A stretch of 58,966 bases of DNA from Bordetella parapertussis (GTDB lineage Bacteria > Pseudomonadota > Gammaproteobacteria > Burkholderiales > Burkholderiaceae_C): positions 1 through 58,966 of the forward strand of contig CAMCNE010000001.1 of assembly GCA_945875935.1 (NCBI GenBank), read 5' to 3'. Positions 19,040 to 50,899 of the stretch are shown piece by piece. Made by a program: the position numbers and the translations under genes. Every line of letters begins with the position of its first letter. The stretch's first letter is position 1. The notes under the pieces were generated by a model, which was not told the DNA's origin, made no database searches, and worked only from the letters and a program-made list of their open reading frames with translations.

Positions 19040-20095
19040 ATGCGCCTGACCCAGCTGCGCCAGCGCCTGCGCGATCACGGTGCCTTGCCGTGCCACGAGC
19101 ACCGGGTGCTGCGGCTGTGGTCGCAGGCGATGCCGCAAGACAGCGGGCGGCGCAAGCCTGAGGACTTTTTGCCGCTGTCGGTTCGCACCGCGCTGCCGGC
19201 ACTTGAGGCCGATCTGCACGGTCTGGCGCGGCTGATTTCCGAGCACCCCGCCGAGGACGGCTCGGCGCGCTTGCTGGTCGGGCTGCACGATGGCCAGACG
19301 GTCGAATCGGTGCTGCTGCCGCGAGACGGCCTGTGCGTGTCCACGCAGGTCGGCTGCGCGGTGGGCTGCGTGTTCTGCATGACCGGGCAGGGCGGTTTGC
19401 TGCGCCAGTTGGGCAGTGCCGAGATCGTGGCGCAAGTGGCGCTGGCGCGGCGGCTGCGCGTGGTCAAGAAGGTGGTGTTCATGGGCATGGGCGAGCCGGC
19501 GCACAACCTCGACAACGTGATGGAAGCCATCGCGCTGCTCGGCCACGAGGGCGGCATCGGTCACAAGAATCTGGTGTTTTCAACGGTGGGCGACCGGCGT
19601 GCCTTCGAGCAGCTGGCCGCCGGGCCGGTCAAGCCCGCGTTGGCCTTGTCGCTGCACACCACCAAGGCCGAGCTGCGCGCTGAGCTGCTGCCACGCGCTG
19701 CCTTGATCGATCCCGAAGAACTGGTGGAACTGGCCGAGCGTTACGCACGCGCCACCGGCTATCCGGTGCAGTACCAGTGGACGCTGCTGGCCGGCATCAA
19801 CGACGGCGACGACGAGCTCGATGGCATCGTGCGGCTGCTTGCCGGCAAGCGCGCCATCATGAACATGATTCCGTACAACGCGGTCGAAGGTCTGGGCTTT
19901 GCCAGGCCGGCCGATGAGCGATCGGCCGCCATCGCCCGGCAGCTGCACCAGCGCGGCGTGCTGACCAAGCTGCGCCAGTCGGCGGGCCAGGACATCGACG
20001 GCGGCTGTGGCCAGCTGCGAGCTCGCCAAAGCGCGCCGGTGCGGGTTCAGAGGTTGCTGTTCGCTCGCACTTCCTCGAGTGACGTGACGCCCTGA
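19040..20095 (+). CDS. RlmN/Cfr-family radical SAM rRNA/tRNA adenine methyltransferase paralog
   Basis: LCVSTQVGCAVGCVFCMTG (radical SAM CxxxCxxC plus the upstream Cys), GMGEP, and the C-terminal DIDGGCGQL catalytic Cys. The N-terminal 90 aa are unlike canonical RlmN. Confidence 0.75.
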   Translation: MRLTQLRQRLRDHGALPCHEHRVLRLWSQAMPQDSGRRKPEDFLPLSVRTALPALEADLHGLARLISEHPAEDGSARLLVGLHDGQTVESVLLPRDGLCVSTQVGCAVGCVFCMTGQGGLLRQLGSAEIVAQVALARRLRVVKKVVFMGMGEPAHNLDNVMEAIALLGHEGGIGHKNLVFSTVGDRRAFEQLAAGPVKPALALSLHTTKAELRAELLPRAALIDPEELVELAERYARATGYPVQYQWTLLAGINDGDDELDGIVRLLAGKRAIMNMIPYNAVEGLGFARPADERSAAIARQLHQRGVLTKLRQSAGQDIDGGCGQLRARQSAPVRVQRLLFARTSSSDVTP

Positions 20096-22611
20096 AGCAC
20101 TTTTTCGATGCCGTCCTGACGCAGCGTGCGCATGCCTTGCTGCATGGCGATGGCCTGCAATTCTTCAGCGCGTGCGCCAGTCTGGATCATGCGGCGAATC
20201 TCGCGCGACACCGACAGCAGCTCGTGCAGACCGGCGCGGCCGCGTTGTCCGGTCTCGCCGCATTGCGCGCAGCCGGTGCACGAGTAGTGCACCAGACGGC
20301 CTGACTCGCCGTAGCGCTGGGTCCAGTCGGCGCGCACGGTTTCGCGGGCAAAGCGCGGGTCGTCTTTCGGGCTGGTGTGCAGGTAGTCGGACAGCAGCTC
20401 GTCGATCTCTTCTTCGGTGGCAGGCCGGCTGGTGCGGCAACCGCTGCACAGACGGCGCACCAGACGCTGCGCCAGCACCACCAGCAGCGCGTCGGCAAAG
20501 TTGAACGGGTCCATGCCCATGTCGAGCAGACGCGTGACGGTTTCGGGCGCGCTGTTGGTGTGCAGCGTCGACATCACCAGATGGCCGGTGAGCGAGGCTT
20601 CGACCGCCATGTGTGAGGTGTCGTGGTCGCGGATTTCACCGACCATGATCACGTCGGGGTCGGCGCGCAGGAATGCGCGCAGCGCCTTGGCAAAGGTCCA
20701 GTCGATCTTCGGGTTGACCTGCACCTGACGCAGGCCGGCCTGGGTGATTTCGATCGGGTCTTCGGCCGTCCAGATCTTGCGCTCGGGCTGGTTGATGAAG
20801 CTGAGTGCCGAGTGCAGCGTGGTCGTCTTGCCCGAGCCGGTGGGCCCCACGCACAGCACCAGTCCGTAGGGGCGCTGGATGGCGGCGGTGAGCTGCTTGA
20901 AGTTGTGCTCGGTCAGGCCGATGCGGTCGAGTGGCATCGGCTTGGCCGACGCCAGGATCCGCATCACGACGTCTTCGAGACCGCTGTGGGTGGGGATGGT
21001 GGCCACGCGCAGTTCGATGCGGTGCTGCGGCATAAACTTGGCAAAGTTGATCTTGCCGTCTTGCGGCTTGCGGCGCTCGGAGATGTCGAGGTCGCACATG
21101 ATCTTGGTGCGAGCGATCATGGCGCTGCGGTAGGTCGGCGGCAGCTCGAGGTAGGTGCGCAGCGCGCCGTCCTTGCGAAAGCGGATGCGGATCTTTTCGC
21201 GACCCGGGTAGCTTTCGATGTGGATGTCAGACGCCCCCTCGCGGTGGGCCTCGATGATCATGTTGTTGATTAGCCGAACCAGCGAGTTGTCCGATTGCTC
21301 GATCGGTCTTTCATCGTGGCCGGCGTCGTCGTTTTCACGCTCGAGCGTTTCAACCAGCTTGTCGGTGCCGATGGCGGTCTGAGGCTCGGCCTCTTGTTGC
21401 TCCAGGCTGCTCTGCCTGGACCCCGAGACGGCGCCGATCTGGTCGTAGGCCGCGTGGGTGCGGTCGTCCATCGAGCGGCTTTGCCCGAGCACGGGCACCA
21501 CCTTCATCTGGGCCGAGAACTCGGCTTCCTCAACAGCCGCACGCCGGCGCGCCGGGTCGTCGAGTGCCACCACCAGGCGGCCCTGAAAGATCAGCAACGG
21601 CAGCAAGCGCAGCCGGGTCGCCAGGGAGTAGGGCAACTTGCGCAGCGCGTCGGCCTCGATCGGGAACGCGTCGACATCGACCAGCGGATAGCCCATCTTG
21701 CGCGCCATCGCCACTTGCAGGTCAGGCCGCGTGACCACGCCGCTGCGCACCAGGATCTCGCCCAGCGGCACGCTGCGATCGAGCTCCTGCTGGCGCAGCG
21801 CGGCCTGCAGGTCTTGGATATCGATCATGCCCAGCGACATCAGCGCCTCGCCGATGCGCACCATGGGCATGCGCGCTTGCTGCTCAAGCGCGCTCACCAG
21901 TTGGTCGGAGGTGACGATGTTGCGCGAGACCAGGATGTCGCCGATGCGCTTTTCGCGCATCTTCACTTGCTCTGCGGCGGCTCTTTCGACCTGATCCGGC
22001 GTGGCGGCTTGCTGCTCGATGAGCAACTCGCCGATGCGCTGTCCCAGATCGAAGGACTTGTAGGCACTGGCCGGCACGAAGGTGCGCATGACCGCCCCTG
22101 AATCGTCATCGGGCTGGAACAGGAACAAGCCGTAGGGCGTTTCGACGTTGCCGACGGTCGAGCCGCACCATTCACCGCCTTGTTTCCACACCAGCCTGAA
22201 GGTGGTAGGCCTGCCTGGCGTCAGCACCATCTCGCCGGGGGTTTCTGCGGCAATTTGCTGGGGCGGCAACGGGTCGGTCAGCGTGAGCGAGCGGAACTGC
22301 TCGAAGCGCAGCAGCAGTTCGGATTTCGATGGTGGCAACTGCACCCATGCAGCGCGCCTGTCCGGCAAGAAGGCGCTGATCTTGCCGTGCATCAGCTTGT
22401 CATTGAGGCCCACGATCTTGCACGCCAGCGCTCCCGATTGGGGCTGGGCGATCGGGTAGACCGCAAACGGTGGCGAAGGCCAGCAAAACGGTGGCGCCGC
22501 AGCGGCGTCGTCTTCGGCTTCGACTTCGACGCCGGCCGTCAAGTCGGCGGGATTCGCGGCCTGTGCGGCGTCCTGAGCTTTCGGTTTTGAAGGTGTCGTG
22601 GTTTGAGCCAT
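20047..22611 (-). CDS. GspE/PilB-type secretion ATPase with a ~190-aa unassigned N-terminal domain and four MshEN-like repeats
   Basis: Walker A GPTGSGKTTT, Asp box, Walker B (PDVIMVGEIRD), His box (TGHLVMSTLHTN), and tetracysteine CSGC...CTGCAQCGETG. Four 24-aa RIGxxLxxxGxx....L...L..Q units span aa 192-305. Confidence 0.85.
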   Translation of the reverse strand: MAQTTTPSKPKAQDAAQAANPADLTAGVEVEAEDDAAAAPPFCWPSPPFAVYPIAQPQSGALACKIVGLNDKLMHGKISAFLPDRRAAWVQLPPSKSELLLRFEQFRSLTLTDPLPPQQIAAETPGEMVLTPGRPTTFRLVWKQGGEWCGSTVGNVETPYGLFLFQPDDDSGAVMRTFVPASAYKSFDLGQRIGELLIEQQAATPDQVERAAAEQVKMREKRIGDILVSRNIVTSDQLVSALEQQARMPMVRIGEALMSLGMIDIQDLQAALRQQELDRSVPLGEILVRSGVVTRPDLQVAMARKMGYPLVDVDAFPIEADALRKLPYSLATRLRLLPLLIFQGRLVVALDDPARRRAAVEEAEFSAQMKVVPVLGQSRSMDDRTHAAYDQIGAVSGSRQSSLEQQEAEPQTAIGTDKLVETLERENDDAGHDERPIEQSDNSLVRLINNMIIEAHREGASDIHIESYPGREKIRIRFRKDGALRTYLELPPTYRSAMIARTKIMCDLDISERRKPQDGKINFAKFMPQHRIELRVATIPTHSGLEDVVMRILASAKPMPLDRIGLTEHNFKQLTAAIQRPYGLVLCVGPTGSGKTTTLHSALSFINQPERKIWTAEDPIEITQAGLRQVQVNPKIDWTFAKALRAFLRADPDVIMVGEIRDHDTSHMAVEASLTGHLVMSTLHTNSAPETVTRLLDMGMDPFNFADALLVVLAQRLVRRLCSGCRTSRPATEEEIDELLSDYLHTSPKDDPRFARETVRADWTQRYGESGRLVHYSCTGCAQCGETGQRGRAGLHELLSVSREIRRMIQTGARAEELQAIAMQQGMRTLRQDGIEKVLQGVTSLEEVRANSNL

Positions 22612-28205: not shown

Positions 28206-29336
28206 TCAGCTGACACGCGGCCGCGCGAGGATGCGCAGATCGCATCCGACGCGCTCGATGTCATGGAAGCGCAGCTGGGGGGCGTGCGCCAGCGAGGCCA
28301 GCGGGCCGAACGCCGCCATGTCCAGGCCGCTGCCCAGCAGCTTGGGCGCGAGGTAGATCAGGTATTCATCGACCAGGCCTTCGTGCACCAGCGAGCCGTT
28401 GAGTTGGCCGCCGGCCTCGACGTGCAGCTCGTTGATGCCGCGCCGTGCCAGATCGGCCAGCATCGCCGTCAGGTCGACCTGGCCGTGTGCGCTGGCCATG
28501 TCGACGACCTCGATGCCGTGGGCGGTGAAGGCCTGCAGCCGATCGGCCGGTGGCCGCGCCGCGTACACCAATACCGAGTCGGGCTTTTGATAGATGCGTG
28601 CGGCCAGCGGCGACCTCAGCTGCGAATCGAGCACCACGCGCAGCGGTTGTCGTGGCGTGGGCACCAGCCGCACATCGAGTTGGGGATCGTCGTGGATCAG
28701 CGTGCCCGATCCGGTGAGCACCGCTCCGGCGCGACGCCGAAACGCGTGACCGTCGGCCCGCGCGGCCTCGCTGGTGATCCATTGGCTGCGCCCGTCGCCG
28801 AGCGCGGTGCGCCCGTCGAGCGAGGCCGCCACCTTGAGCCGCACCCAAGGGCGGCCGCGCAGCATGCGCGAGAAAAAGCCGATGTTCAGCTCGTGCGCCG
28901 CGTCGGCTTCGACGCCGGCAATCACCTCGATGCCCGCGGCGCGAAGGCGGGCTGCGCCCTGGCCGGCGACCAGCGGGTTGGGGTCTTCGATGGCCATCAC
29001 CACCCGGCCCACGCCGGCTTGCACCAGCGCGTCGCAGCAAGGCGGCGTGCGGCCGTGATGGGCGCACGGCTCGAGCGTGACGATGACCGTGGCGCCGCGC
29101 ACCGAGTGGCCGTGGGCGGCGGCATCGCGCAGCGCCATCACCTCGGCATGCGGCCCGCCGGCTTGCTGGGTGTGACCGCGGCCGATCACCGTGCCGTCGT
29201 CGGACACGATCAGGCAGCCCACGCGCGGGTTGGGCTCGCTCAGCGCCACCGCATCGGCGGCGAGCCACAACGCCTCGCGCATCCAGTGTGCGTGGGCGTC
29301 GTCGGCCTGACTGTCGGTGTCGGGCGTGGGGGTCAT
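28206..29336 (-). CDS. ribD: Bifunctional riboflavin biosynthesis deaminase/reductase RibD
   Basis: Deaminase zinc motif HAEVMAL...PCAHHGRTPPCC, followed by the reductase domain. Confidence 0.9.
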   Translation of the reverse strand: MTPTPDTDSQADDAHAHWMREALWLAADAVALSEPNPRVGCLIVSDDGTVIGRGHTQQAGGPHAEVMALRDAAAHGHSVRGATVIVTLEPCAHHGRTPPCCDALVQAGVGRVVMAIEDPNPLVAGQGAARLRAAGIEVIAGVEADAAHELNIGFFSRMLRGRPWVRLKVAASLDGRTALGDGRSQWITSEAARADGHAFRRRAGAVLTGSGTLIHDDPQLDVRLVPTPRQPLRVVLDSQLRSPLAARIYQKPDSVLVYAARPPADRLQAFTAHGIEVVDMASAHGQVDLTAMLADLARRGINELHVEAGGQLNGSLVHEGLVDEYLIYLAPKLLGSGLDMAAFGPLASLAHAPQLRFHDIERVGCDLRILARPRVS

Positions 29337-29354: not shown

Positions 29355-30617
29355 TCAGGGTTGGTGGGCAACGGTGGTGACAGGGGCGGTGGCCGCAGCC
29401 TTGAGATCGATTGTCGCGGCAGCCTCTGTGGGGCAGGCGAGATCTCCGCGTATCACCAGAAAGTTTTGTTGCTGCAGCGGAGCGTCGACGTTGCGGTAGA
29501 CCGACGGGTGTTCGTCGTTGCGGTCGATGGCACCGCTGCCGTCGAGGTCGTTCACGTAACGGCACACCCGCCGCTGCGTCGGCGCGGTGCCTATCGTCCA
29601 GCCCACGGGCACCAACACGCTCTGGCCCGACCAGCGCGGCGGATCGCCGGCGGCCACCACCACGCAGCGGTAGGCCACGAAGCGCTCGCCGGTGTCCTGC
29701 CAGAACGCCAGGCCGCGGCTGGCCGGTGTGGCGTCGAGCGCCACCGCCTCGCGGTGCACGCCATCGGCAGCGCGGTAGATCACGGTTTTTTGCGGCTCGG
29801 CGTTGCACCACGGCGAGGCCGGCGCGAGCATGCCCGGCAGCCCGACCGACAGCGCGAGTTCGAGCGGCGTGTCGTTGGCAGCCACCGGGTCGGGCGGGTC
29901 GGCGTTCGAAAAGCGCACCGTGCCACCGAGCAGCAGCGCCTTGAATTCGACGCACTGCGTCAGGTGTTCGGCCCGCAGGTCTGCGCTGGCCACCTCGGCC
30001 GGCACGCCGGTGCACTGCTCGACGACCTGTGCGGTGGCGACGTCGACCACGAAGGCGATGGTGGCCGAGGCCGTGGGCTTGAAGGCGCTGCGCCGCTCGT
30101 CGATGGGCGTGGCCGATGAGGGCAGGGCGTTGGCGAGCGCGCTGCCACTGAGCGCTCCGCGCAGGCTCGGCACCAAAGTGAGCGCGCCCGACAAGACGGG
30201 ATCTTGCGTCGACAGGGCCGACACGAGCACCGCTTGCTGCGTCGAGCCCTCGCGGCCTTGCCAGGTGATGTCCACGGTGGTCGAAGGCAGCAAGGCATTT
30301 GCCTCATCCACCTCACGACTCAAATGGAACACGGTGTTGAAGCGCTGCCCCGCCACGTCGGCGATCGTGCGCGAGCCTGAAGTCGACGGCTTTGAACCCG
30401 AGATGCGGTGGGCTTCGATCTCGTCGTGCGCCAGGCGAACTGCCTCGGAGCGCTGCCGTGCGGTGTCAGCGTGGGCCTGCAGCTGTCGATGCAGCTGGCC
30501 CATGCCCACCACGCCCAGGGACAGCACGAGCAGCGAGAACAGCACCTCGAGCAGGCTGACGCCGCGATGTGTGCGGCGCGCAGCGCGCGGCGATCGGGCC
30601 GGGACATGGTGCTGCAT
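29355..30617 (-). CDS. PilV-like prepilin-type minor pilin with a ~280-aa C-terminal extension
   Basis: Class III signal RG|VSLLEVLFSLLVLSLGVVG. The first ~140 aa are PilV-like and the remainder matches no family I recognise. EF-hand-type loop DLDGSGAIDRND lies near the C-terminus. The ATG overlaps the stop of the upstream gene by 1 nt. Confidence 0.6.
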   Translation of the reverse strand: MQHHVPARSPRAARRTHRGVSLLEVLFSLLVLSLGVVGMGQLHRQLQAHADTARQRSEAVRLAHDEIEAHRISGSKPSTSGSRTIADVAGQRFNTVFHLSREVDEANALLPSTTVDITWQGREGSTQQAVLVSALSTQDPVLSGALTLVPSLRGALSGSALANALPSSATPIDERRSAFKPTASATIAFVVDVATAQVVEQCTGVPAEVASADLRAEHLTQCVEFKALLLGGTVRFSNADPPDPVAANDTPLELALSVGLPGMLAPASPWCNAEPQKTVIYRAADGVHREAVALDATPASRGLAFWQDTGERFVAYRCVVVAAGDPPRWSGQSVLVPVGWTIGTAPTQRRVCRYVNDLDGSGAIDRNDEHPSVYRNVDAPLQQQNFLVIRGDLACPTEAAATIDLKAAATAPVTTVAHQP

Positions 30618-31909
30618 CAGAAGTCTTTCCAGCTGCCCGGCACCTGCGCGAAGCTGCCGGTGTGCACCTGCAAGGCACGCAGCACGCCGGTGTCGCGGTG
30701 CAGGTCGGGCGCGCCGTTGCCCGAGTAGCCCGACTCGGACACCACCGCGCCGTGAACACTCGCCTGCGGTGCTGTGGCGGCGTCCCAGCGAACGCTCGCC
30801 GCGTAGAGCAGACCGTGCACGGTGACATCGCCACTGAGCACGGCTGCGCCGTGGACCACGATGAGCACCGGCTGCTCGGGCGAGCCCAAGGTGATCGGGC
30901 CGTCAAGCGTCGCGTCGCCATCGATGGAAATCATGCGGTTGCTTCCCGTGGTCTCGATGGCAGCAGCCAGGCGCGCGCCGCACGCGAAGCTGCAGTCGAG
31001 CTGCTGCACCGCGCCATGGCGGCGCCAACTCGCGCGGTCCAACCCGAATTGCGCCGCGAACAGCCTGTCGGGCGTGAGTGCGGCCAACGCGGCGTCGTGC
31101 GTCGATGCCGAGGCCTGGGCGGGGCTGCCCGGCGCGCTGCCCAGGCGCAGCGCCGTGCCGATCAGGCTGCCACCGGCGTGCACCGACACGCCGCCACTGG
31201 CGGCATCGGCGTTGTGCACGCCCAGCGCAGCGTCACCGGCGTCGACCGACTCGCGCGCCGTGAGCGCCGCCTGCGGCAGCACCGACACACCGGGCAGCAG
31301 CGCCAGCAGCACCTGCAGCCGCACCACCGAATCGGCCCGACTGTCATGTCCGGGCCGGCACGGCCCCGCGGCGTTGGAGCAACCGGTGGCGGTCAGCCGC
31401 ACCAGACCTGGCAGCGGCTCGGCAGTGAACTGCACGCTGAACGCGGGGCGCGGCGTGATGTCATCGCCCGCCGTGGCTGGAAACTGCGGGAACCCGCTCG
31501 AGGGGCATGCGCACGACCACGACCCGGCCGTGCGCAGGCACCCCGGCTGCAAGGCCAGGCTTTGCGAGCCGCTGGCCCAGCGCCTGGGTTCGTGGTGGCC
31601 AGAGGCGGTGTCTGAGGCCAAAAAGCGCTCGCGAAAAGACCGGCTGCCAGCTGAGTCCCCCTGCTCGCAGCGGTCGTCGACCGGCCGTGCCTGATTGAGC
31701 CGGGCGACGGCCCAATCGATGCCCGACTGCGCGGCCTCGAAGGCCTGAGCCTCGCGGTACTGATTGGCCGACAAGCGCTGTTCGAGCAGCAAGCTGCGGT
31801 GCGCGTAGGCGGCGGTCATCAGCATGGCAAACAGCAGCACCAGGCTGACGGCGAGCGTGGCGGCACCGCGCTGTCGGGCAAGGTGGATCGGGGCGTGAGC
31901 GCGCTGCAT
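30617..31909 (-). CDS. PilX-like pilus assembly protein (430 aa)
   Basis: Start at MQRAHAPIHLARQRGAATLAVSLVLLFAMLMTAAYAHRSLLLEQR (PilX N-terminal type). It lies 10 nt after the pilW-like stop. Confidence 0.6.
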   Translation of the reverse strand: MQRAHAPIHLARQRGAATLAVSLVLLFAMLMTAAYAHRSLLLEQRLSANQYREAQAFEAAQSGIDWAVARLNQARPVDDRCEQGDSAGSRSFRERFLASDTASGHHEPRRWASGSQSLALQPGCLRTAGSWSCACPSSGFPQFPATAGDDITPRPAFSVQFTAEPLPGLVRLTATGCSNAAGPCRPGHDSRADSVVRLQVLLALLPGVSVLPQAALTARESVDAGDAALGVHNADAASGGVSVHAGGSLIGTALRLGSAPGSPAQASASTHDAALAALTPDRLFAAQFGLDRASWRRHGAVQQLDCSFACGARLAAAIETTGSNRMISIDGDATLDGPITLGSPEQPVLIVVHGAAVLSGDVTVHGLLYAASVRWDAATAPQASVHGAVVSESGYSGNGAPDLHRDTGVLRALQVHTGSFAQVPGSWKDF

Positions 31910-31919
31910 CGGCCGGCTT

Positions 31920-32624
31920 TCAAACGGGGCAGCGCCCGGTGATCTCGTCGTTGCGCAGCCGCACCTCGGCGCGCGAAGTGCGCACGGCGCTGGCATCGGC
32001 CGCGCTGTGCGCTGCGACCGTCACGATCACGCTGCGCAGCGTCTGGCGTGGCGGGCAGGCGGTATCGCCCGCGGCGCAGTCTGTGCTGCACAGCGCGCCC
32101 AGATCGATCACGGTTTCAGCCGGCGTGAATTCGAGCGCGGCGACTTTCATGAGGCTCGCGTCCGTCATCGCCTGCCAACTGCCGCCGCCCAGGCGCATCT
32201 CGATCACTTGGTTGCGCAGCCTGAAGCCGAACTGCTCGTTGCTGTCGATGCTGTGGTTTTCGACACTGTCGCGCGAGTAGTGCAGGGTCAGGGCGCCAGC
32301 TGGTGCGGGTGCGGTGTCGATGGCGGCATAGGGGTTGGCGGCGACCGTGCGATCGGGTGGCGGCGCATCGCGCAGCCAAACCCCGGCGCCCGAGTCGGCC
32401 CAATGGCCGGCTCGGCGCAAGTCGCGCGCGATCAGGCTGGTGGTGCTGCGCAGGTCCTGGATCAGGCGGTTGTGTTCGATCAACGCGCGGCTTTCCTTCA
32501 GATGGGCCATCAGCACGCCGATGCCCGCGCCCACCAGCAGCACGCCGAGGGCCGAGCCGATCAGCAGTTCGATCAGCGACAGGCCGCGTTGCCGGCCGAT
32601 GGGGTTGGTGGGCTGCCGGGCCAT
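31920..32624 (-). CDS. PilW-like prepilin-type minor pilin
   Basis: RG|LSLIELLIGSALGVLLVGAG class III signal, followed by a PilW-like body (234 aa). Confidence 0.65.
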   Translation of the reverse strand: MARQPTNPIGRQRGLSLIELLIGSALGVLLVGAGIGVLMAHLKESRALIEHNRLIQDLRSTTSLIARDLRRAGHWADSGAGVWLRDAPPPDRTVAANPYAAIDTAPAPAGALTLHYSRDSVENHSIDSNEQFGFRLRNQVIEMRLGGGSWQAMTDASLMKVAALEFTPAETVIDLGALCSTDCAAGDTACPPRQTLRSVIVTVAAHSAADASAVRTSRAEVRLRNDEITGRCPV

Positions 32625-32625
32625 C

Positions 32626-33096
32626 TCACTGACCCCAGCAGCGGCGGTTGACCGACGACGGGTTGCTGGTGGACTCGGTCTCGCCCGAGGCGTAGGTGAG
32701 GTTGAGCCCGTCCATCGTCAGCCGCAACTGTTGGCATGCGGTGTCACGGCGTTGGGCACCGACCGCCACCGCGCGCACCGAGTAGCCGCTGGGCGATGCA
32801 GACTCGACGACGATGTCGTAATGGCCCGCCGCAGACGTGCTGGCCAGACCCAGCTGGCTCAGCTCGCCGTAGGCCTCATGGTTGGCGCGAAAGCGCTCCT
32901 GCGCCGTTTGCACCGTCATGAGAGCGACCAGCGCATCCGAGCGTCTGGCGGCGGCCAGCGTGCTGCTGAAGGCCGGGTAGGCGATCGATGACAAGATGCC
33001 CACGACGCTCAGGCTGAACACCATTTCCAGCAGGCTGAAGCCTGATTGGAAGGGCCGCCGCGTTGACGGTTGGAAGCGTGAAGAGGGTGTGTTCAT
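32626..33096 (-). CDS. Type IV pilin-like protein (PilE-type, 156 aa)
   Basis: Start at MNTPSS. QSG|FSLLEMVFSLSVVGILSSIAYPAF with Glu at +5, and a C-terminal Cys pair (ACQQL...RRCW). Confidence 0.65.
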   Translation of the reverse strand: MNTPSSRFQPSTRRPFQSGFSLLEMVFSLSVVGILSSIAYPAFSSTLAAARRSDALVALMTVQTAQERFRANHEAYGELSQLGLASTSAAGHYDIVVESASPSGYSVRAVAVGAQRRDTACQQLRLTMDGLNLTYASGETESTSNPSSVNRRCWGQ

Positions 33097-33128
33097 GGGT
33101 CTTGCTCGGCTGTTGAAGGCAGGCGAAA

Positions 33129-33683
33129 TCAGCATGCGGGATAGCCGGCCAGCGCCGGACCGGGTGTCGTCGGGGTGCAGGTGCGCACACGCCCGAGCAC
33201 GTTCACCACATGGGAAATGGCGCGGCCCGAGGTGGCTGAAACTTTCAGGGTGCCTGCGGGCGTGGCGGTGGCGTGCAGCGGGTCGAAAACCATTGAGCTG
33301 ACGTTGGACTGCACGCGCAGCCGGCTCGATGACGACAGCGCCACCGTCTTGAACGCCACCGCGTCGGCCTCGCACATCGGTGTGTTTGACTCGGCTTCGC
33401 AGCGGCACTGGTTGCGCGCACCGGTGTGCATCACGTAGCAGCTGCCGCCGGTGCTTTCGTAAAAGCTCAGCCGCAGCGTTTCGTTGCGCGCGGCGGCTTC
33501 GCTGCGCAGCCACTGCACATCGCTTGCGAGTTGCGTGGCCAGCCCGGCGAGTCGCTGACGCTCGAGCAACCCGGTCAAATCGGGTGCGGCGGCGCACAGC
33601 AAGATGGCGGCGACGGCCACCGTGACCGCCGATTCGATCAGCGTCAGGCCGCGTTGTGGGTGGCAAGGGTGCAGTGAGTCCAT
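33129..33683 (-). CDS. GspH/FimT-family pseudopilin
   Basis: RG|LTLIESAVTVAVAAILL class III signal and the FimT/GspH-type region LASDVQWLRSEAAARNETLRLSF. Confidence 0.65.
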   Translation of the reverse strand: MDSLHPCHPQRGLTLIESAVTVAVAAILLCAAAPDLTGLLERQRLAGLATQLASDVQWLRSEAAARNETLRLSFYESTGGSCYVMHTGARNQCRCEAESNTPMCEADAVAFKTVALSSSSRLRVQSNVSSMVFDPLHATATPAGTLKVSATSGRAISHVVNVLGRVRTCTPTTPGPALAGYPAC

Positions 33684-33771
33684 GGGCTCACTGTAGAAAT
33701 GGCGCTCCGCTTTTGCGATCCCGCAAAAGGGGGCCGCGCGAGTGTTTCTGGGGTGCCCCCGAAAGGGGGTG

Positions 33772-34215
33772 TCAGATGTCGCGGATCAGCTGGCGAAAGG
33801 CGTCGACGTCTTCGAAGCTGCGGTAGACCGACGCAAAGCGCACATAGGCGACCTTGTCGATGCGCTTGAGTTCGCGCATCACCAGCTCGCCCAGGCGGGT
33901 CGACGGCACTTCGCGCGCGCCGCTGCCGAGCAGCTTTTCCTGGATGCGATCGATGGCGGCGTCGATCTGCTCGACGCTGACCGGGCGCTTGCGCAGCGCC
34001 AGCGTCATCGACGCGCGGATCTTGGTCATGTCGAAATCAGCGCGTGTGCCGTCTTTCTTGATGACCGACGGCAGCGCGATTTCGGCGCGCTCGTAGGTGG
34101 TGAAGCGCTTGTCGCAGCTTTGGCAGCGCCGGCGTCGGCGAACCACGTCGCCTTCGTCAGATTCGCGCGTCTCGGCGACTTGCGTTTCAGCGTGGCTGCA
34201 GTAGGGGCAACGCAT
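33772..34215 (-). CDS. nrdR: Transcriptional repressor NrdR
   Basis: MRCPYCSH...[13 protein letters not shown] zinc ribbon plus an ATP-cone domain. Confidence 0.9.
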
Positions 34216-34268: not shown

Positions 34269-35519
34269 TCAACGGTAGACCGGAAATTCGCGGGTGAGCG
34301 CCGAGACCTTGGCACGTACCGCCGCCAGATTGGCCTCGTCGTGCGGGTTGTCGAGCACGTCGGCGATCAGGTGAGCTGTGAGGCGCGTTTGCTCTTCCAT
34401 AAAGCCGCGCGTGGTCAGCGCCGGCGTGCCCAGACGGATGCCACTGGTGACCATGGGCTTTTGCGGGTCGTTGGGGATGCCGTTCTTGTTGCAGGTCATG
34501 TGGGCCAGGCCCAGCGCGGCCTCGGCTTCCTTGCCGGTCAGGTTCTTGGGGCGCAGGTCGACCAGCATCACGTGGCTTTCGGTGCGGCCGCTCACGATGC
34601 GCAGGCCGCGCGAGATCAGCGTTTCGGCCAGCACGACGGCATTTTTCAGCACCTGCTGCTGGTACAGCTTGAACTGCGGCGACAGCGCTTCGTGGAAAGC
34701 CACGGCCTTGGCCGCGATGACGTGCATCAGCGGGCCGCCCTGAATGCCAGGGAACACCGCGCTGTTGATCTTCTTGGCGATGTCTTCGTGGTTCGTGAGG
34801 ATGATGCCGCCGCGCGGGCCGCGCAGGCTCTTGTGGGTGGTCGAGGTGACCACGTCGGCGTGCGGCACCGGGTTGGGGTAGACGCCGCCGGCAATCAGCC
34901 CCGAGTAGTGCGCCATGTCGACCAGGAAGTACGCACCGATGTCCTTGGCCACCTTGGCGAAACGCTCGAAATCAATGCGCAGCGAGTAAGCCGACGCGCC
35001 GGCGATGATCAGCTTGGGCTTGTGCTCGTGCGCCAGGCGCTCCATCGCGTCGTAGTCGATCTCTTCCTTGGCATCCAGGCCGTAGCTCACCACCTTGAAC
35101 CATTTGCCGCTCATGTTCAGCGGCATGCCGTGGGTCAGGTGACCGCCTTCGGCCAGGCTCATGCCCATGATGGTGTCGCCCGGCTGCAGCAGCGCAAAGA
35201 ACACCGCCTGATTGGCCTGCGATCCGGAGTTGGCCTGCACGTTCGCAAAGCCCGCGCCGTACAACGCCTTGAGGCGGTCGATGGCGAGCTGCTCGGCCAC
35301 GTCGACGAATTCGCATCCGCCGTAGTAGCGCTTGCCGGGATAGCCCTCGGCGTATTTGTTGGTCAGCTGGCTGCCCTGGGCTGCCATCACCGCCGGCGAG
35401 GTGTAGTTCTCGGAGGCGATCAGCTCGATGTGCTCTTCCTGACGCTGGTTTTCGTTTTGGATGACCGACCAGAGTTCAGGGTCGATGAGAGCAATCGTGG
35501 ACTGGGATCGATCAAACAT
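34269..35519 (-). CDS. glyA: Serine hydroxymethyltransferase
   Basis: [22 protein letters not shown] and [12 protein letters not shown] (PLP lysine) motifs. Confidence 0.95.
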
Positions 35520-38726: not shown

Positions 38727-40235
38727 ATGAGTCTGTTCTCACTGCTTGATCACACAGCCACGAGGTTTCCGGATCACGGGGCGGTTTTCCAGGGCCTTGA
38801 ACGGGTTCTCACGTGGCGAGAACTGAAGGCCCGCGCTTTGGTGATGGGCGCTGCGATACGCGGCAGGTGTCGTCCGGGTGATCGGGTGGCGATCGTCAGC
38901 GAGAACCGTCCCGAGTACGTCGAGCTCATGTTCGCGGCGTGGGCCGCCGAGGTGGTGATCGTTCCGGTCAACTACAAACTGCACGACAAAGAGGTCTTGC
39001 AGATCCTGGAGGACGCCGAGGTTTCTCTGGTGTTTGCATCCCCCACGCTGCTCGGCGGGTTGCCCCGAATGATTGCGACCTATGGCGACAAGACGGTGGC
39101 GATTGGTGAGCCCGCCTACACGCAAATGACCACAGGTGAACAGCTGGCGGTTCCATCTGCCGACCCGCAGGCCTTGGCCTGGTTGTTTTACACGAGCGGG
39201 ACGACCGGCCGATCCAAGGGTGCCATGCTGTCGCATCGCAACCTGATGGCAGCGACCATCGCCCACCTGGCCGACATCGAAGCGCTTGATGAATCGTGCA
39301 GCCAGCTCCACGTGGCGCCCATGTCGCACGGTTCGGGCATGTACATGCTGCCGTCGATCGCTCGCGGTGCACGGCAGGTTGTTCCGGCCTCCGGCGGATT
39401 CGAGCCTGCGGAATTTCTCGACCTTTGCGATCAGCATCCAGCCTGCGGAGCCTTCCTGGCGCCGACCATGATCCAGCGTTTGCGCATCGCGGTCGAAGAA
39501 GGCAAGCGAAGCCGGCCGAAGCACCTGCGCAACATCGTCTACGGTGGTGGGCCGATGTACGTCGAGGAACTGAGAAAGTCGACGACCGTGCTGGGGCCAG
39601 TTTTTTCGCAGATCTACGGCCAGGGTGAGGCCCCAGTGACCATCACCGGAATGAATCAGGCCGCGCACCTCACAGACGACGACGCCATCCTGGGTTCTGT
39701 CGGTTGGCCACGCAGCGGTGTCGAGGTCCGGGTGACCGACGCTGATGGCAAGGACCTGTCAACAGGAACGATCGGTGAAATCCTGGTTCGCGGTGATGTG
39801 GTGATGGCAGGGTACTGGCGTAACCCGGCCGCAAGCGCCGAGACCTTGCGCGATGGGTGGCTTCACACCGGTGACATGGGCACGTTCGACGAACGCGGTT
39901 GCCTGACATTGAGAGACCGCTCCAAGGACGTCGTGATCAGCGGTGGCAGCAACATCTATCCCCGCGAGGTTGAAGAAGTGTTGCTGTTGCACCCCGCAGT
40001 GGCCAAGACGAGCGTGGTGGGGCGCCCTGATACCGAGTGGGGTGAGGTGCTCATCGCCTTTGTGGTCCGTGCCGATGGGGCTGATGTCACCCCCGCCGAG
40101 CTTGACGCCCATTGCCTTGATCACATCGCACGTTTCAAGCGACCGAAGGAATATAAGTTCCTGGATGAACTGCCCACCAGCAGTTATGGCAAGGTTCTCA
40201 AGACTGAGTTGAGAAAGCTGTTGGAAAACACCTGA
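38727..40235 (+). CDS. AMP-forming acyl-CoA ligase (medium/short-chain type)
   Basis: FYTSGTTGRSKG, YGQGEAP, TGDMG and SGGSNIYPREVE motifs. 502 aa. Confidence 0.8.
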   Translation: MSLFSLLDHTATRFPDHGAVFQGLERVLTWRELKARALVMGAAIRGRCRPGDRVAIVSENRPEYVELMFAAWAAEVVIVPVNYKLHDKEVLQILEDAEVSLVFASPTLLGGLPRMIATYGDKTVAIGEPAYTQMTTGEQLAVPSADPQALAWLFYTSGTTGRSKGAMLSHRNLMAATIAHLADIEALDESCSQLHVAPMSHGSGMYMLPSIARGARQVVPASGGFEPAEFLDLCDQHPACGAFLAPTMIQRLRIAVEEGKRSRPKHLRNIVYGGGPMYVEELRKSTTVLGPVFSQIYGQGEAPVTITGMNQAAHLTDDDAILGSVGWPRSGVEVRVTDADGKDLSTGTIGEILVRGDVVMAGYWRNPAASAETLRDGWLHTGDMGTFDERGCLTLRDRSKDVVISGGSNIYPREVEEVLLLHPAVAKTSVVGRPDTEWGEVLIAFVVRADGADVTPAELDAHCLDHIARFKRPKEYKFLDELPTSSYGKVLKTELRKLLENT

Positions 40236-40264
40236 TCAATACTTCTAGAAAACATGGGAGAGAA

Positions 40265-41437
40265 ATGATGAGCGTTGCAATCGTTGGTTGGGCACAAACA
40301 CCATTTGGTAAATTTGACAACGAAAGCGTCGAGAGCCTGATCGTCAAGGCGGTCAACGATGCACTGGCCTATGCTGGCGTTGAAGCTTCAGATGTTGACG
40401 AGATTTACCTGGGCCACTTCAATGCTGGCTTCTCAAAGCAGGATTTCACAGCGTCGCTGGTATTGCAGGCCGACGACGGCTTGCGCTTCAAGCCGGCCAC
40501 ACGCGTGGAAAATGCTTGTGCCACAGGGTCTGCCGCCATTCACCAAGGCATCAAGTCGATTGAATCGGGCCGGGCCCGTATCGTTCTTGCTGTTGGGGTT
40601 GAGCAGATGAGTTTGACATCGGGGCCGGAAGTTGGCGCCAATTTGCTTCGAGCTTCGTACCTGCGTGAGGAAAGCCATATCCAAGGCGGTTTTGCAGGCC
40701 TTTTTGGGCGAATCGCTGATGCGTATTTTGAGAAATACGGCGATCAGTCAGATGCTCTGGCCAAGATTGCCGCAAAGAATCACAAGAACGGAGTTTCCAA
40801 CCCTTACGCTCAGATGCGAAAAGATTTGGGATATGAATTTTGTCGGCAAGTCAGTGAAAAAAACCCGCTGGTCGCCGGCCCTTTGAAGCGCACAGACTGC
40901 TCACCGGTCTCCGACGGGGCTGCCGCTGTGGTGCTCGCCGATTCAAAGACGGCTTCCACGATGCGCAAGGCAGTCACTGTTCGCTCGGTGGCGCATGTGC
41001 AGGACTTCCTGCCCATGTCGCGCCGGGACATCTTGCTCTTCGAGGGGTGTTCGATGGCGTGGCGCAAGGCGCTTTCAGATGCGAATCTGCAACTGTCCGA
41101 CCTGTCTTTCGTCGAGACGCACGATTGCTTCACCATGGCCGAACTCATCGAGTACGAGGCCATGGGCTTGACGCCTTACGGGCAAGGCGCAAGAGCCATT
41201 CATGAGGGTTGGACCCTCGTTGGCGGGAAGCTTCCCGTGAATCCATCTGGCGGCTTGAAGGCCAAGGGCCATCCTGTGGGCGCCACAGGGGTTTCGATGC
41301 ATGTCATGACGGCGATGCAATTGAATGGCGAGTTGCCAGCGCCCATCACTGTCGAAAATGCGACGCTCGGGGGCGTGTTCAACATGGGTGGCGCAGCGGT
41401 TGCGAACTACGTCAGCATCTTGGAGCGTTCCCGCTGA
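40265..41437 (+). CDS. Thiolase-family protein (SCP-x / acetyl-CoA acyltransferase-like)
   Basis: Catalytic Cys context VENACATGSAA, plus THDCF and GHPVGATG near the C-terminus. G+C content drops from this gene onward. Confidence 0.8.
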   Translation: MMSVAIVGWAQTPFGKFDNESVESLIVKAVNDALAYAGVEASDVDEIYLGHFNAGFSKQDFTASLVLQADDGLRFKPATRVENACATGSAAIHQGIKSIESGRARIVLAVGVEQMSLTSGPEVGANLLRASYLREESHIQGGFAGLFGRIADAYFEKYGDQSDALAKIAAKNHKNGVSNPYAQMRKDLGYEFCRQVSEKNPLVAGPLKRTDCSPVSDGAAAVVLADSKTASTMRKAVTVRSVAHVQDFLPMSRRDILLFEGCSMAWRKALSDANLQLSDLSFVETHDCFTMAELIEYEAMGLTPYGQGARAIHEGWTLVGGKLPVNPSGGLKAKGHPVGATGVSMHVMTAMQLNGELPAPITVENATLGGVFNMGGAAVANYVSILERSR

Positions 41438-41734
41438 AAGTGGCTCAGCCGTCCGAATTGCGGCCGGACCCTGAGGCCGCTCTGAGGCGGCCCTGCGCTC
41501 CAATCGTCCGGAATCGAAACACTTTAGGCCTGAATTACCGGGGATTTCCCCAGTAAGTTTCAGTCCGTTGCAACGTACATTGCTCACTCTCAGCAAAGAG
41601 TCATCGCTCGATTTGCGTCCTTGGGGGACGTGCTTCAGGCGTATCACATTGGGTGATTGCTTCGCACCTTTTGCCTAGCGATCTGCTCATCCAGCATCCC
41701 TCCCACGCCAGACGCTATACAGATATCAAGGCCT

Positions 41735-43768
41735 ATGCCGCACACCAGCCAGATTTTCTCGCACCCGGAAAATGACGACCGTGTCAGTTCGACATGGGAG
41801 AAGTTTTTGAGTGGAGAGGTTTGCGGGTCAGATGCGCTGCGCCGGTTGATCGATGACTCTTGGCGCCGCTGTCAGACGGCGGATGTGGATCCCGAGCGAG
41901 ACAAAGCACCTCCTCCGCTCGCTGAAGAGCCCTTGCAGCGCCTGCTCGAGGAGCACGACGAGTTGTTGTCAGCGGGAACACCCGTGATGGCACACGCCCG
42001 CCAGTTTCTGGATGAAACCGGGACTGTGATGGTGTTGACCACGCACGACGGCGTTATTCTTAACCTCGAGGGGGACCCTTCTACCTCCGCTGCGGCCGCT
42101 GAACGTATTCGCATGCTTCCTGGAAGCAGCTGGAGCGAGGCCGCCTGTGGCACCAACGCAATTGGTACGGCGCTGGCTATAGGGCAACCGGTCCAGATTC
42201 ACTCTGCTGAGCACTACTGCGCGGGTATCAAGAGATGGACTTGTTCGGCCACGGTCGTCAGAGACCCCTACGACAACAGCATACTTGGCGTCGTTGACGT
42301 TTCTGGCCTGAATTCGACCTACAACAGGCACAGCTTGGCGCTGGTGGTGACCACGGCAAGCCGGATCGAGAGCCGTCTGGCGCGCCGCGAAATGGAGTTG
42401 CGATACAGGCTGCTTGACTTGTGCGTGTCCCGCGTGGGCGGCACCACATCAGACGGAATCATCTTGCTGGACCGACGCGGCAATCCCATCAAGGCGTCTG
42501 ATCGCGCGCAGACTGCGTTGAACGCGCTGAGCGCCAACGGACGAATGGCGGCGCCTATTGAGTTGTCCAAACTGAAGATTCCTGCATCTTTCAAGGGTGA
42601 TTTGAGGGCAGGCCTTCCCGACTGGATCAACCATGATTGGCTTGAACCGATTGTCGACAACGGACAGAAAATTGGCTCGATTCTGACGATTCCCAACCGT
42701 GGATTGCAGATTGGACCTCGCCGTAGCGAAGCCATTCTCGTGAAGAGTTCCGGCGTCAAAAATCAACACTTTGCGCGGGTCATTGGCAAGTCACCCAAGT
42801 TGCTCGAAGCCGTGGACTGCGCCCAAAGGCTTGCAAAGTCCAACGTCCCAATACTTCTGCTCGGAGAAACAGGTGTAGGCAAGGACGTATTTGCCAATGC
42901 AATTCATGCCACGAGCATCACCACGGGTGAGGCCCCATTTGTCGCCTTGAATTGCGGCGCATTTTCTCGAGAACTCCTGACCAGCGAGTTATTTGGTTAC
43001 GCCGAAGGATCCTTCACCGGCGCACGCCGCGGGGGAATGATGGGGAAGATTGAGGCTGCAAGCGGCGGCACCTTGTTTCTTGATGAAATCGGCGAGATGC
43101 CACTCGATTTGCAGCCTCATTTCCTCAGGGTGCTGGAAGATGGTGCGATATTCAGGGTAGGAGAGAACAAGGCGCGCAACGTTTCCTTCCGACTTCTGGC
43201 TGCAACCAATAAAGACCTTCGAAAAGAAGTCTCCGAGGGGCGTTTTCGAATGGATCTTTATTACAGAATCGCAGTTGCAGCGATCAACATTCCCCCCCTT
43301 CGGGAGAGATCTGAAGATATTCAAGCGATTTCAGAGTACTTTCTAGAAAAACTGTCAGCAAGGCATGGCCTTCAAAGGCAGAGTTTAGATGGCGAGGCTA
43401 TCGAAATTTTGAATCGCCACGACTGGCAGGGTAACGTAAGAGAGTTGCGTAACGTGCTCGAGCGAGCGATGCTGATGTCCACCGGGCCTGTACTGACAAA
43501 AGATTCTCTACCAGAAGAAGTGCGAAAATCTTTTGTGATAGATTCAATTAAGACCAATTCGGTAAGTTTGCGATTGGACATGAAGAGTCTTGAGCAAGTG
43601 GAGAAAGATGCAATCATTTCAATGATCGAACGGCTGGGCGGAAATATGACGGCCGTCGCCAGAGAGTTGGGGATTGCCAAAAGTACCTTGTATGTGAAAC
43701 TGAAAAAGTTTGACATTTCTACACATGCTGCTGAGGATCAGGCCTCGGCCATGCCCGCGCAGTTCTGA
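41735..43768 (+). CDS. acxR: Sigma-54-dependent transcriptional activator, AcoR/AcxR type
   Basis: Start at MPHTSQ. N-terminal AcoR-like sensory region, AAA+ core ([16 protein letters not shown] loop, ELRNVLERA), and a C-terminal Fis-type HTH ([19 protein letters not shown]). Confidence 0.85.
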
Positions 43769-43973
43769 TTGCCAAGCTGCGCTTTGAGTAGAGCATGGTC
43801 CGCATCGCGACTGGGTATGTCGGAGTCGCCGCTGGTGTCCTGGCAGGTTGAACCTATTTGTGTCGGTCACTTCTTAGCATGCGGCGTATGAAATCCGAAC
43901 GCTGAACATTGCCAAGGCCCGCCAAACCAATCCTAAGTTATTGATTTTTAAAGTATTAAAAAATCGAGTCGAT

Positions 43974-43989
43974 TGGCATGAGTTCTGCT
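43974..43989 (+). promoter_or_regulatory. Possible sigma-54 promoter upstream of the AbiV-like ORF
   Basis: TGGCATGAGTTCTGCT keeps the GG-N10-GC spacing, but the -12 element is CTGC rather than TTGC. Confidence 0.35.
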
Positions 43990-44024
43990 CTATCAAACCC
44001 TAACCATGCCAAGCCATCGGGGCA

Positions 44025-44786: not shown

Positions 44787-44869
44787 GTTTTTGTATTTGA
44801 ATGTTGAAAAATAAAAAATTAACTTGATGTGGTGTTTTGTTTAAAAATAAATTTAGAAAGGTTATGCCA

Positions 44870-45499: not shown

Positions 45500-45670
45500 C
45501 CGGAGAGTAAGGGTTGAACCCTGATGACCGGAAGACGAACGGGGCTCAAAATTCCGTCCGGCTTCCATCCGTCCTAGGCCCATTGATTCGAGTTGAATTC
45601 TGGGCCGAAAGACGAAAAAACTGATGTAAATCAAACAGTTGGTCTTTCAACTGACATCAGGCTGACGATC

Positions 45671-45686
45671 TGGCATCGACCTTGCA
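45671..45686 (+). promoter_or_regulatory. Sigma-54 (-24/-12) promoter of the acxABC operon
   Basis: TGGCATCGACCTTGCA against the consensus TGGCAC-N5-TTGCW, about 100 nt upstream of the acxA ATG. A sigma-54 activator gene is nearby. Confidence 0.65.
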
Positions 45687-45785
45687 GTTAGGTGGGTGTT
45701 CGGTCCTTGATGGATCGTTCGGTAATTTCGGGCCCCTCGGGGCCATTGGCGTAGACCATATTGTTTTTTTAATGGAGACGTGGAG

Positions 45786-47933: not shown

Positions 47934-47945
47934 GGAGAAACAACC

Positions 47946-50270: not shown

Positions 50271-50313
50271 TCTTCAACTTATCAGCAACGATTCCGTAAA
50301 TTTGGAGATTTAG

Positions 50314-50820: not shown

Positions 50821-50861
50821 TTTAGTGTTCGGATGCCTGTTCGTGAGAGCGGGCATCCAAG

Positions 50862-50899
50862 GCACGGCTGGAGTATTCCGGCCGTGCTTTTTTTGTTTT
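50862..50899 (+). terminator. Rho-independent terminator after acxC
   Basis: gcacggc...gccgtgc stem followed by TTTTTTTGTTTT. A second hairpin, ggatgcc...ggcatcc, lies at 50831-50858. Confidence 0.65.

Follow-up and report, generated by a model that had tools for sequence, protein, structure and literature searches.

Five minor-pilin genes between nrdR and ribD in a branch of Burkholderiales: a probable PilY1-independent tip and priming complex of type IVa pili

In contig CAMCNE010000001.1 of assembly GCA_945875935.1, analysed from position 1 to position 58,966 (hereafter the window), five consecutive open reading frames (ORFs) on the minus strand separate the housekeeping genes nrdR and ribD. 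We suggest that they form an operon which probably encodes the tip and priming complex of a PilY1-independent type IVa pilus, with the pilus machine encoded elsewhere. In order of transcription, the products are a FimT/GspH-type minor pilin of 184 aa (33129-33683, from the ORF and a Pfam GspH match), a PilE-like non-core minor pilin of 156 aa (32626-33096, ORF and Pfam ComP_DUS), a PilW/PpdB-type core minor pilin of 234 aa equivalent to GspJ (31920-32624, a sub-cut-off match to NCBIfam PpdB), a PilX-type capping pilin of 430 aa (30617-31909 with ATG at 31909, ORF and PilX_N) and a two-module PilV-type pilin of 420 aa (29355-30617, ORF, with the PilV match confined to the N-terminus). Upstream lies nrdR (33772-34215, minus strand), whose homologues carry Zn_ribbon_NrdR and ATP-cone domains, with glyA beyond it (34269-35519); downstream, ribD (28206-29336, minus strand) is the first gene of the rib-nusB array. 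Recomputed from the sequence, the pilin-pilin junctions measure 32, 1, 10 and -1 nt, the last being a TGATG overlap, and the block lies 88 nt from the nrdR stop and 18 nt from the ribD ATG. A first-pass annotation had proposed the five ORFs with these coordinates and junction lengths, each opening with a class III signal or a PilX-type anchor, in an array of co-directional neighbours. All of this is borne out: there are four signals with a glutamate at position 5 (E5) and one PilX anchor, and the flanking genes are glyA, nrdR, ribD, ribE, ribBA, ribH, nusB, ybgC and tolQRA.

The class III signal, G↓(L/F/V)(T/S)L(I/L)E with Gly at -1 and Glu at +5, is present in the four proteins other than the PilX-like one. 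Its core reads G↓LTLIE, G↓LSLIE and G↓VSLLE in the H, I and J equivalents and G↓FSLLE in the PilE-like protein, and is kept in 63-74 homologues. GC content at third codon positions (GC3) of the pilin genes is 0.81-0.86, equal to that of flanking genes. The ratio of nonsynonymous to synonymous substitution rates (dN/dS), taken against a relative 90-95% identical, is 0.11-0.31 in each gene; by this measure, purifying selection acts on all five. The two large proteins have more than 220 homologue clusters each, among which length is conserved; for the 420-aa protein, all clusters are ~400-457 aa long. An exact-sequence look-up of the 420-aa protein returned no record. Because of the GC3 values, the dN/dS ratios and the homologue clusters, we regard the ORFs as real, selected genes and not as a chance pattern.

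Four of the products are core minor pilins, namely FimT (GspH-like), PilW/PpdB (GspJ-like), PilX (a GspK-like cap) and PilV (GspI-like); the PilE-like protein is accessory to them. Searches of the Protein Data Bank (PDB) by sequence, with single sequences as well as profiles, gave nothing for FimT, PilW, PilX and PilV. The FimT-like protein matches Pfam GspH at 37.2 bits (cut-off 21, E = 4.5e-9), and its best NCBIfam match is PpdA. Its residues 164-167 (33183-33194) form a GRVR motif. Among the sequences extracted from 60 related loci, every intact FimT-like homologue carries the C-terminus VVNV(M/L)GRxR(S/T)C...C; the unrelated C-terminus obtained at locus L084 was probably mis-extracted and stands outside the intact set. 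GRxR is a DNA-binding motif shown in Legionella FimT (PMC8897410), and FimT of Vibrio cholerae binds DNA by its C-terminal G-[RK]-x-[RK] motif (PMC12040237). With an isoelectric point (pI) of 8.3, the mature FimT-like protein is the sole basic subunit among the five. It is the adaptor subunit and the candidate DNA-binding one. The 234-aa protein matches NCBIfam PpdB with E = 7e-12, and its orthologues have a precomputed match to Pfam PF27121 PpdB.

The accessory 156-aa pilin matches Pfam ComP_DUS at 62.7 bits (cut-off 27.3), and its head matches Pseudomonas aeruginosa PilE (PDB 4noa, E = 5e-5). The Pfam name would invite filing it as a receptor for DNA uptake sequences (DUS) of the Neisseriaceae ComP type. 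In Neisseria, uptake sequences are enriched to ~1 per kb. By k-mer counting there is no DUS-like over-represented 10-12-mer in the 59 kb of the window; the most frequent 10-mer is found 8 times and the most frequent 12-mer 4 times, and all are GC-rich generic words. Because of this lack of enrichment we rejected the DUS-receptor reading.

In the 430-aa protein, PilX_N is recognized at 41.2 bits (cut-off 25.5, E = 1.6e-10). Its anchor, QRG↓AATLA, lacks E5, as expected for a capping pilin, and E5 is likewise missing in 71 homologues. In a family alignment, eight Cys never vary, and the C-terminus GSW(K/R)DF is conserved. An AlphaFold2 model (predicted local distance difference test, pLDDT, 86.9; predicted template-modelling score, pTM, 0.81) contains a beta-solenoid region at approximately residues 210-405, and the strand pattern of the model is consistent with a solenoid inserted before the last strand. 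The best PDB match of the model in Foldseek is Thermus ComZ (6qvi; E = 2.7e-4, probability 0.87, template-modelling (TM) score 0.22), followed by ice-binding beta-solenoids. Weak matches to DUF7305 were obtained in 12 of 26 members. ComZ, the tip DNA receptor of Thermus, is itself related to the pilin fold and to ice-binding solenoids (PMC6561018). The relationships of our model are the same two that were reported for ComZ and for cyanobacterial PilX, and we model PilX as a ComZ-like beta-solenoid pilin. All cyanobacterial PilX proteins share a beta-solenoid architecture, proposed to replace the "plug" of PilY1, whereas proteobacterial PilX has been described as small (bioRxiv 10.64898/2026.02.12.705559). 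With ComZ and the cyanobacterial proteins, the modelled PilX would share a pilin fold bearing a large, triangular, ice-binding-like beta-solenoid and a predicted tip location in a system without PilY1. It differs from ComZ in its sequence (~10% identity) and in the size of the solenoid (~200 residues vs ~380), and from both in its proteobacterial host.

The 420-aa protein consists of a pilin module (~20-135), a linker (~138-163) and a Cys-rich, beta-rich C-terminal module of ~255 aa (~165-420). NCBIfam PilV matches its N-terminus only, at 33.5 bits against a cut-off of 52.2. The C-terminal module contains an EF-hand-like loop, D357-L-D-G-S-G-A-I-D365 (29523-29549). Of 74 PilV members, 69 contain the corresponding calcium-type motif, D-x-[DN]-x-[DSN]-G-x-x-D, and 72 have the six conserved Cys; a terminal HQP-COOH is likewise found in 72. 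Because the HQP codons vary synonymously, this end is selected at the level of protein. For comparison, the consensus of the PilY1 calcium motif is Dx[DN]xDGxxD (PMC8833165). Among 24 members, Pfam has no match for the C-terminal module; the PDB has none by sequence or fold, and Foldseek of the PilV model gave no significant match and no PilY1. The module is found in 445 representative clusters, mostly in proteins of 350-490 aa. By these searches, the module is uncatalogued.

Two known kinds of tip protein resemble this PilV. Modular pilins, which consist of a pilin module and a grafted functional module, are an established class (PMC8179133). Like PilB of Streptococcus sanguinis and CofB of enterotoxigenic Escherichia coli, the protein has a small pilin module, a linker and a grafted module predicted at the tip (PMC8179133); the putative calcium loop would be the counterpart of their metal site. 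Unlike in those cases, the grafted module matches no catalogued domain and sits on a core subunit of PilV/GspI type. PilY1/PilC is the other: PilV comes close to its calcium motif with the D-x-D-x-S-G-x-x-D loop, and would likewise present a bulky, beta-rich module at the tip. However, the PilY1 beta-propeller was found neither in the five proteins (Pfam, NCBIfam, Foldseek) nor in the other scanned ORFs of the window, and a module of ~255 aa fused to a pilin takes the place of a separate protein of ~1000 aa.

Homologues of the locus were collected by a scan of one genome per species, which gave 139 matching stretches. The 79 retained loci come from Rhizobacter, Methylibium, Caldimonas, Rubrivivax, Ideonella and Piscinibacter and include the isolate Rhizobacter sp. 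Root404. Almost all related genomes examined, also of Pelomonas and Roseateles, have the arrangement glyA-nrdR-[FimT, PilE-like, PilW/PpdB, PilX, large PilV]-ribD. The five pilin genes have identical order in 62/62 loci; ribD is the next gene after the large PilV in 72 of 74, and nrdR directly precedes the pilins in 44 of 51. The 7 loci without adjacent nrdR comprise 5 with an insertion at the nrdR-fimT junction and 2 with no nrdR in the sequence covered. Pilin identity falls from 95% to ~36% across loci, in parallel with the flanking housekeeping genes, and the reading frames are intact in ~80 species-level genomes. Because order and position are fixed and identity tracks the flanks, these comparisons show vertical inheritance and no recent insertion, and we regard the arrangement as ancestral in the Rubrivivax / Rhizobacter / Methylibium / Roseateles branch of Burkholderiales, referred to below as the clade. 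The first-pass annotation had allowed that such an arrangement might be universal and already characterised in the family. It did prove nearly clade-wide, but our literature search found no paper on a pilin locus between nrdR and ribD or on type IV pili of the clade. A search of NrdR homologues aimed at outgroup genera gave matches only from the same clade.

Several related loci deviate in detail. Insertions of 1.7-5.7 kb are present in L001, L008, L014 (probably also L009), L063, L079 and L084, all of them at the nrdR-fimT junction; in the related loci, the pilin block and the PilV-ribD spacer are both free of insertions. A tripartite ATP-independent periplasmic (TRAP) transporter (TAtT / DctP / DctQM) fills this junction in L001, and a TRAP transporter is also present in L008. 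Pelomonas sp. SE-A7 (L085:6287-11173) has six pilin genes from nrdR to ribD, the extra one, for an N_methyl protein of 185 aa, being placed after the PilE-like gene and before the PpdB-like one; the rib array of this genome lacks ribE. We rejected as new architectures the 557-aa and 650-aa "PilV" proteins of L086 and L087, two long-read metagenome contigs in the European Nucleotide Archive (ENA), as these are frameshift-ridden assemblies with the same synteny. An 881-aa "fusion" of ComP_DUS and PpdB in L086/L087 is an artefact as well; glyA, ubiD and rib genes are broken there too, and such artefacts inflate the length range in protein databases.

Transcription of the block was approached through its junctions. 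A GC hairpin, CCCCC-TTTC-GGGGG (33756-33769, minus strand), lies directly 3' of the nrdR stop, without a U-tract. Most related loci have a C5-N4-G5 hairpin with variable loops in this position, and it could work as an attenuator or a weak terminator. Between it and fimT is a promoter-like box (33690-33733, minus strand), found by genome comparison only, with the consensus CCCACCTC-n3-GGGGTCGCG, ~17 nt, TTCTACAGT. In the window, the GGGATCGC box occupies 33722-33715 and TACAGT 33695-33690, the latter with its end 6 nt from the fimT ATG. When 42 distinct intergenic regions are aligned on an anchor, T-A-x-A-x-T and the GGG.TCGC box are 90-100% conserved. Two other readings were rejected by eye: the palindrome TTTTGCG-GGAT-CGCAAAA of the window is not spaced as a CRP-S site would be, and TACAGT lacks the CTGT partner of a LexA box. 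TACAGT at 6 nt from the ATG would make the fimT mRNA leaderless (33684-33695; also in L003, L015-L022, L024, L027 and L073). Other lineages keep the box and have a GGAG-led (Shine-Dalgarno) start ~30 nt downstream, and the two start types appear to alternate in the clade.

At the other end of the block, the spacer between PilV and ribD, 18 nt here, is mostly shorter than ~60 nt in relatives, and ATGA stop/start overlaps occur in several. In Roseateles, the PilV C-terminal module and the stop codon are gone, and the pilin module with the linker is in frame with RibD in an ORF of 558 aa. This ORF is present in two independent, near-identical assemblies (L089:12504-14180, isolate GCA_014193045.1; L090:12532-14208, a metagenome of the Joint Genome Institute, JGI). 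RibD probably starts at an internal ATG there, although a membrane-anchored PilV-RibD fusion is possible. In the whole window Rfam finds only a tRNA; there is no flavin mononucleotide (FMN) riboswitch, which would have pointed to an independent rib transcription unit. Because of the short spacers, the ATGA overlaps, the adjacency in 72/74 loci and the in-frame ORF of Roseateles, read-through from the pilins into ribD, and thus co-transcription of the two, is strongly suggested. Co-transcription with nrdR is doubtful on the same kind of comparison: the hairpin after nrdR, the conserved box and the placement of all relatives' insertions at the nrdR-fimT junction suggest that transcription of the pilins probably begins at a separate promoter. 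Read as a single transcript, the uninterrupted array described at first is thus supported from the pilins to ribD and not supported from nrdR onwards.

The order of genes along the high-GC window is dnaE, tctABC, an orphan PilB-like ATPase, tolA-tolR-tolQ-ybgC, nusB-ribH-ribBA-ribE-ribD, the pilins, nrdR-glyA, SLT and ubiD, and then a lower-GC acetone carboxylase region. Profile scans, which covered most large ORFs of the window, gave no match to PilY1, PilC/GspF, a secretin or a prepilin peptidase among the scanned ORFs, nor any gsp genes (including gspCDEFLM) or hps genes nearby. The earlier statements that no PilY1, ATPase or platform gene is close to the pilins, and that an orphan secretion ATPase lies ~7 kb away, both agree with these scans: the sole ATPase of the T2SSE family is 6.7 kb away and partnerless. 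It is a protein of 854 aa (20047-22611, minus strand) with a T2SSE domain, encoded next to tolA; its closest profile is PilB, at 540 bits vs a cut-off of 675.65. It carries MshE-type motifs for binding of cyclic di-GMP and a weak DUF4388 similarity under the Pfam cut-off. Its position is kept in the closer relatives L001, L008, L010, L015, L017, L019 and L020; it is not there in Pelomonas L085.

Precedents for the gene order exist. The minor-pilin operon of the V. cholerae competence pilus consists of FimT (VC0858), PilW (VC0859), PilX (VC0860) and PilV (VC0861), has no PilY1, and its PilX is a cap without E5 (PMC12040237). The order and composition, which the first-pass annotation called non-canonical, match this published arrangement and are non-canonical relative to Pseudomonas only. 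Our locus and VC0857-VC0861 are both five-gene operons with the order FimT-PilW-PilX-PilV and no pilY1, with an E5-less PilX cap and with a FimT ending in G-[RK]-x-[RK]. The Vibrio subunits are small, in contrast to the bulky PilX (430 aa) and PilV (420 aa) found here. Other differences are the extra pilin after FimT, the embedding of the operon between nrdR and rib genes, and similarity at family level only. The E. coli ppdA-ppdB-ygdB-ppdC and Haemophilus comNOPQ genes have the same H-J-K-I order and no PilY1 either. The E. coli genes lie directly upstream of the housekeeping gene recC, and ribD holds a comparable place here; their products have 107-187 aa without extra modules. PpdA and PpdB of this system are the best NCBIfam matches of our 184-aa and 234-aa proteins, but with scores far under the equivalog cut-offs (46 vs 158 and 45 vs 120 bits, respectively). 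With fimU-pilV-pilW-pilX-pilY1-pilE of P. aeruginosa, the locus shares the five pilin classes (GspH-like, PilV, PilW, PilX and PilE); it differs in order, in the lack of PilY1, in the FimT-type GRxR instead of a FimU-type C-terminus, and in PilX and PilV more than twice as long. The operon is thus of a known type, and its novelty lies in the two bulky subunits and in the conserved nrdR-rib setting.

The analysis establishes the identity of the genes, their order and conservation, the motifs and the predicted folds. The model that we propose goes further and infers how the subunits assemble, that they sit at the tip, what they bind (ligand, calcium and DNA) and how the genes are transcribed. 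Transcription would start at the conserved box by the fimT start codon and read through ribD-ribE-ribBA-ribH-nusB. Because of this presumed read-through, the tip proteins would be made whenever the riboflavin genes are expressed. A prepilin peptidase encoded elsewhere would cleave the pilins. The core subunits would then form a helical cap in the inner membrane, in the order PilX > PilV > PilW > FimT. The cap would prime polymerisation of the major pilin by a PilB/C/M-Q machine, also encoded elsewhere, and stay at the tip of the growing filament. There, the two bulky subunits would take over the jobs of Pseudomonas PilY1. PilX would provide a ComZ-like beta-solenoid "plug" at the distal end. 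PilV would expose its acidic module, which would be held by disulfide bonds and bear a calcium loop of PilY1 type; this module would probably serve as a calcium switch or an adhesin. Finally, the C-terminal GRxR of FimT may lend the tip sequence-independent binding of DNA, and because of this proposed activity the pilus could also serve DNA uptake. The role in priming and at the tip that was assigned to the locus at first sight is thereby kept as the best reading, for five minor pilins without PilY1.

Several observations weigh against this model or against parts of it. Firstly, the structural support is uneven. The TM-score of the ComZ match is low in spite of its E-value. The PilV model has a pLDDT of 68, with a low-confidence linker and a poorly modelled calcium loop, and the loop itself, DLDGSGAID, has Ser at position 5 where PilY1 has Asp. 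Secondly, the large modules of PilX and PilV are both acidic (pI 5.0-5.5), which argues against DNA binding by them; judged from their sequences, they look like adhesin or calcium modules and not like DNA binders. Thirdly, neither a pilus machine nor a major pilin is among the scanned ORFs of the 59-kb window. Fourthly, a consensus scan for sigma-70 promoters and terminators (25.0-36.5 kb) called no promoter in this range and no terminator at the junctions, and terminator-like sites were no commoner than in shuffled sequences. The promoter-like box was missed because its match to the -35 element is poor; as the scan does not call it, we treat the box as a hypothetical promoter. Finally, the locus is not retained everywhere. 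Besides the Roseateles lineages without the PilV C-terminal module, there is contig L088 (ENA NODE_5), the NrdR of which is identical to that of Roseateles L089 and which has no pilin cluster 3' of nrdR. At least one lineage has thus lost the locus or carries it elsewhere. Downstream of glyA-nrdR, this contig contains neither pilin nor rib genes; unrelated genes, including one for a PIN-TPR-GreABC protein, are found instead. The PilV module, and in some lineages the whole operon, is thus dispensable.

Could the locus instead be a dedicated tip set for competence? It would then stand beside a canonical fimU-pilVWXY1E set and prime a separate filament for DNA uptake, as in cyanobacteria or Thermus. 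We consider this possible, though not the likelier outcome. The genes follow the order of the V. cholerae competence operon and likewise include no pilY1, PpdA and PpdB rank first among the NCBIfam matches, GRxR is present in every intact FimT homologue examined, and the predicted fold of PilX is ComZ-like; multiple minor-pilin sets that prime specialised filaments have also been documented (bioRxiv 10.64898/2026.02.12.705559). On the other hand, the large tip modules are acidic, and the 59 kb contain no uptake-sequence-like repeat, though sequence-independent uptake needs none. Competence regulons are tightly induced, unlike pilin genes that are probably transcribed constitutively together with rib genes, and we found no report of natural transformation for the clade.

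It is improbable that the genes encode pseudopilins of a secretion-type filament, either like the type II secretion system (T2SS) or like Hps polysaccharide export. Many members of the clade form sheaths or flocs, which would suit an export function, and there are weak NCBIfam matches to HpsB, HpsC, GspH, GspG and GspK; cyanobacterial PilX-EPS/HpsA also have large solenoids (bioRxiv 10.64898/2026.02.12.705559). These matches, however, stay far below the equivalog cut-offs (GspH 13 vs 80, GspG 25.8 vs 88.85, GspK 18.6 vs 130 and HpsB 16 vs 150 bits), and on these scores we rejected a T2SS pseudopilin reading. The head of the accessory pilin is PilE-like, and no gspCDEFLM or hps genes came up near the locus in the window scans.

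A cryptic or decaying operon, retained since transcription must cross it to reach ribD, is very unlikely. The E. coli ppdAB-ygdB-ppdC genes, cryptic under laboratory conditions, would be a model for it, the loss of the PilV module and fusion of its remnant to ribD in Roseateles and the lack of the cluster in L088 speak for it, and a place inside an essential operon could shield decaying genes from loss. Against it stand the dN/dS values of all five genes, the Cys, GRxR, calcium loop and HQP end kept down to ~36% identity, the synonymous changes in HQP codons, which indicate selection on protein, and the number of species-level genomes with intact frames. Least credible is a recently acquired island: although nrdR-ribD adjacency is common in other Proteobacteria and the nrdR-fimT junction has taken up TRAP transporters in L001 and L008, the same five genes occupy the same place in the same order in 62/62 loci over the whole range of identities, their codon usage and GC3 are those of the flanks, and there is no integrase, repeat or tRNA at the borders. 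The pilins had been described as inserted between nrdR and ribD; a recent insertion is refuted, while an ancient one at the base of the clade is possible.

We return to the operon as the source of a PilY1-independent tip and priming complex, since the content of this complex decides what a pilus adheres to, whether it takes up DNA and how it senses surfaces. In the current picture, Proteobacteria combine small minor pilins with a large PilY1, and Thermus and cyanobacteria employ a bulky beta-solenoid PilX (bioRxiv 10.64898/2026.02.12.705559). The locus suggests that a large group of environmentally abundant Burkholderiales of freshwater and soil (among them Rubrivivax, Methylibium, Rhizobacter and Roseateles) use the solenoid-PilX solution as well and add a second bulky subunit, the module of which belongs to no described family. 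It offers a compact, testable model for tips that do without PilY1. A GRxR-bearing FimT would be a candidate DNA receptor in bacteria not known to be transformable, and could make them genetically tractable. The probable translational coupling of pilus genes to an essential vitamin-biosynthesis operon would be unusual, too. A more radical version holds that the type IVa pili of the clade have dispensed with PilY1 altogether, its plug and calcium-adhesin roles being split between PilX and PilV, and that this is the sole tip set, made constitutively from the nrdR-riboflavin operon. We put it forward only tentatively and think it rather doubtful; if true, it would be the first proteobacterial case of the Thermus/cyanobacterial solution and would bring a new pilin-borne domain family.

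The remaining observations concern other parts of the window. From ~40000 to 58966, GC content falls from ~0.65 to 0.48-0.59, and this part may be an acquired catabolic island. It contains genes for a sigma-54 activator (41657-43768), acetone carboxylase-like proteins (45780-50820), and BNR, MMPL, DUF1302 and DUF1329 proteins. At the lowest GC of the window (0.48-0.49), a HEPN protein of the AbiV family, of abortive-infection type, is encoded on the plus strand (44025-44786; Pfam E = 2e-24). At the opposite end (3874-6929, minus strand), two long ORFs each contain a pair of DUF1254 and DUF1214. Their longest-ORF calls, 3874-6072 and 5454-6929, overlap; the true start of the first one is probably further downstream, which would make the two tandem paralogues.

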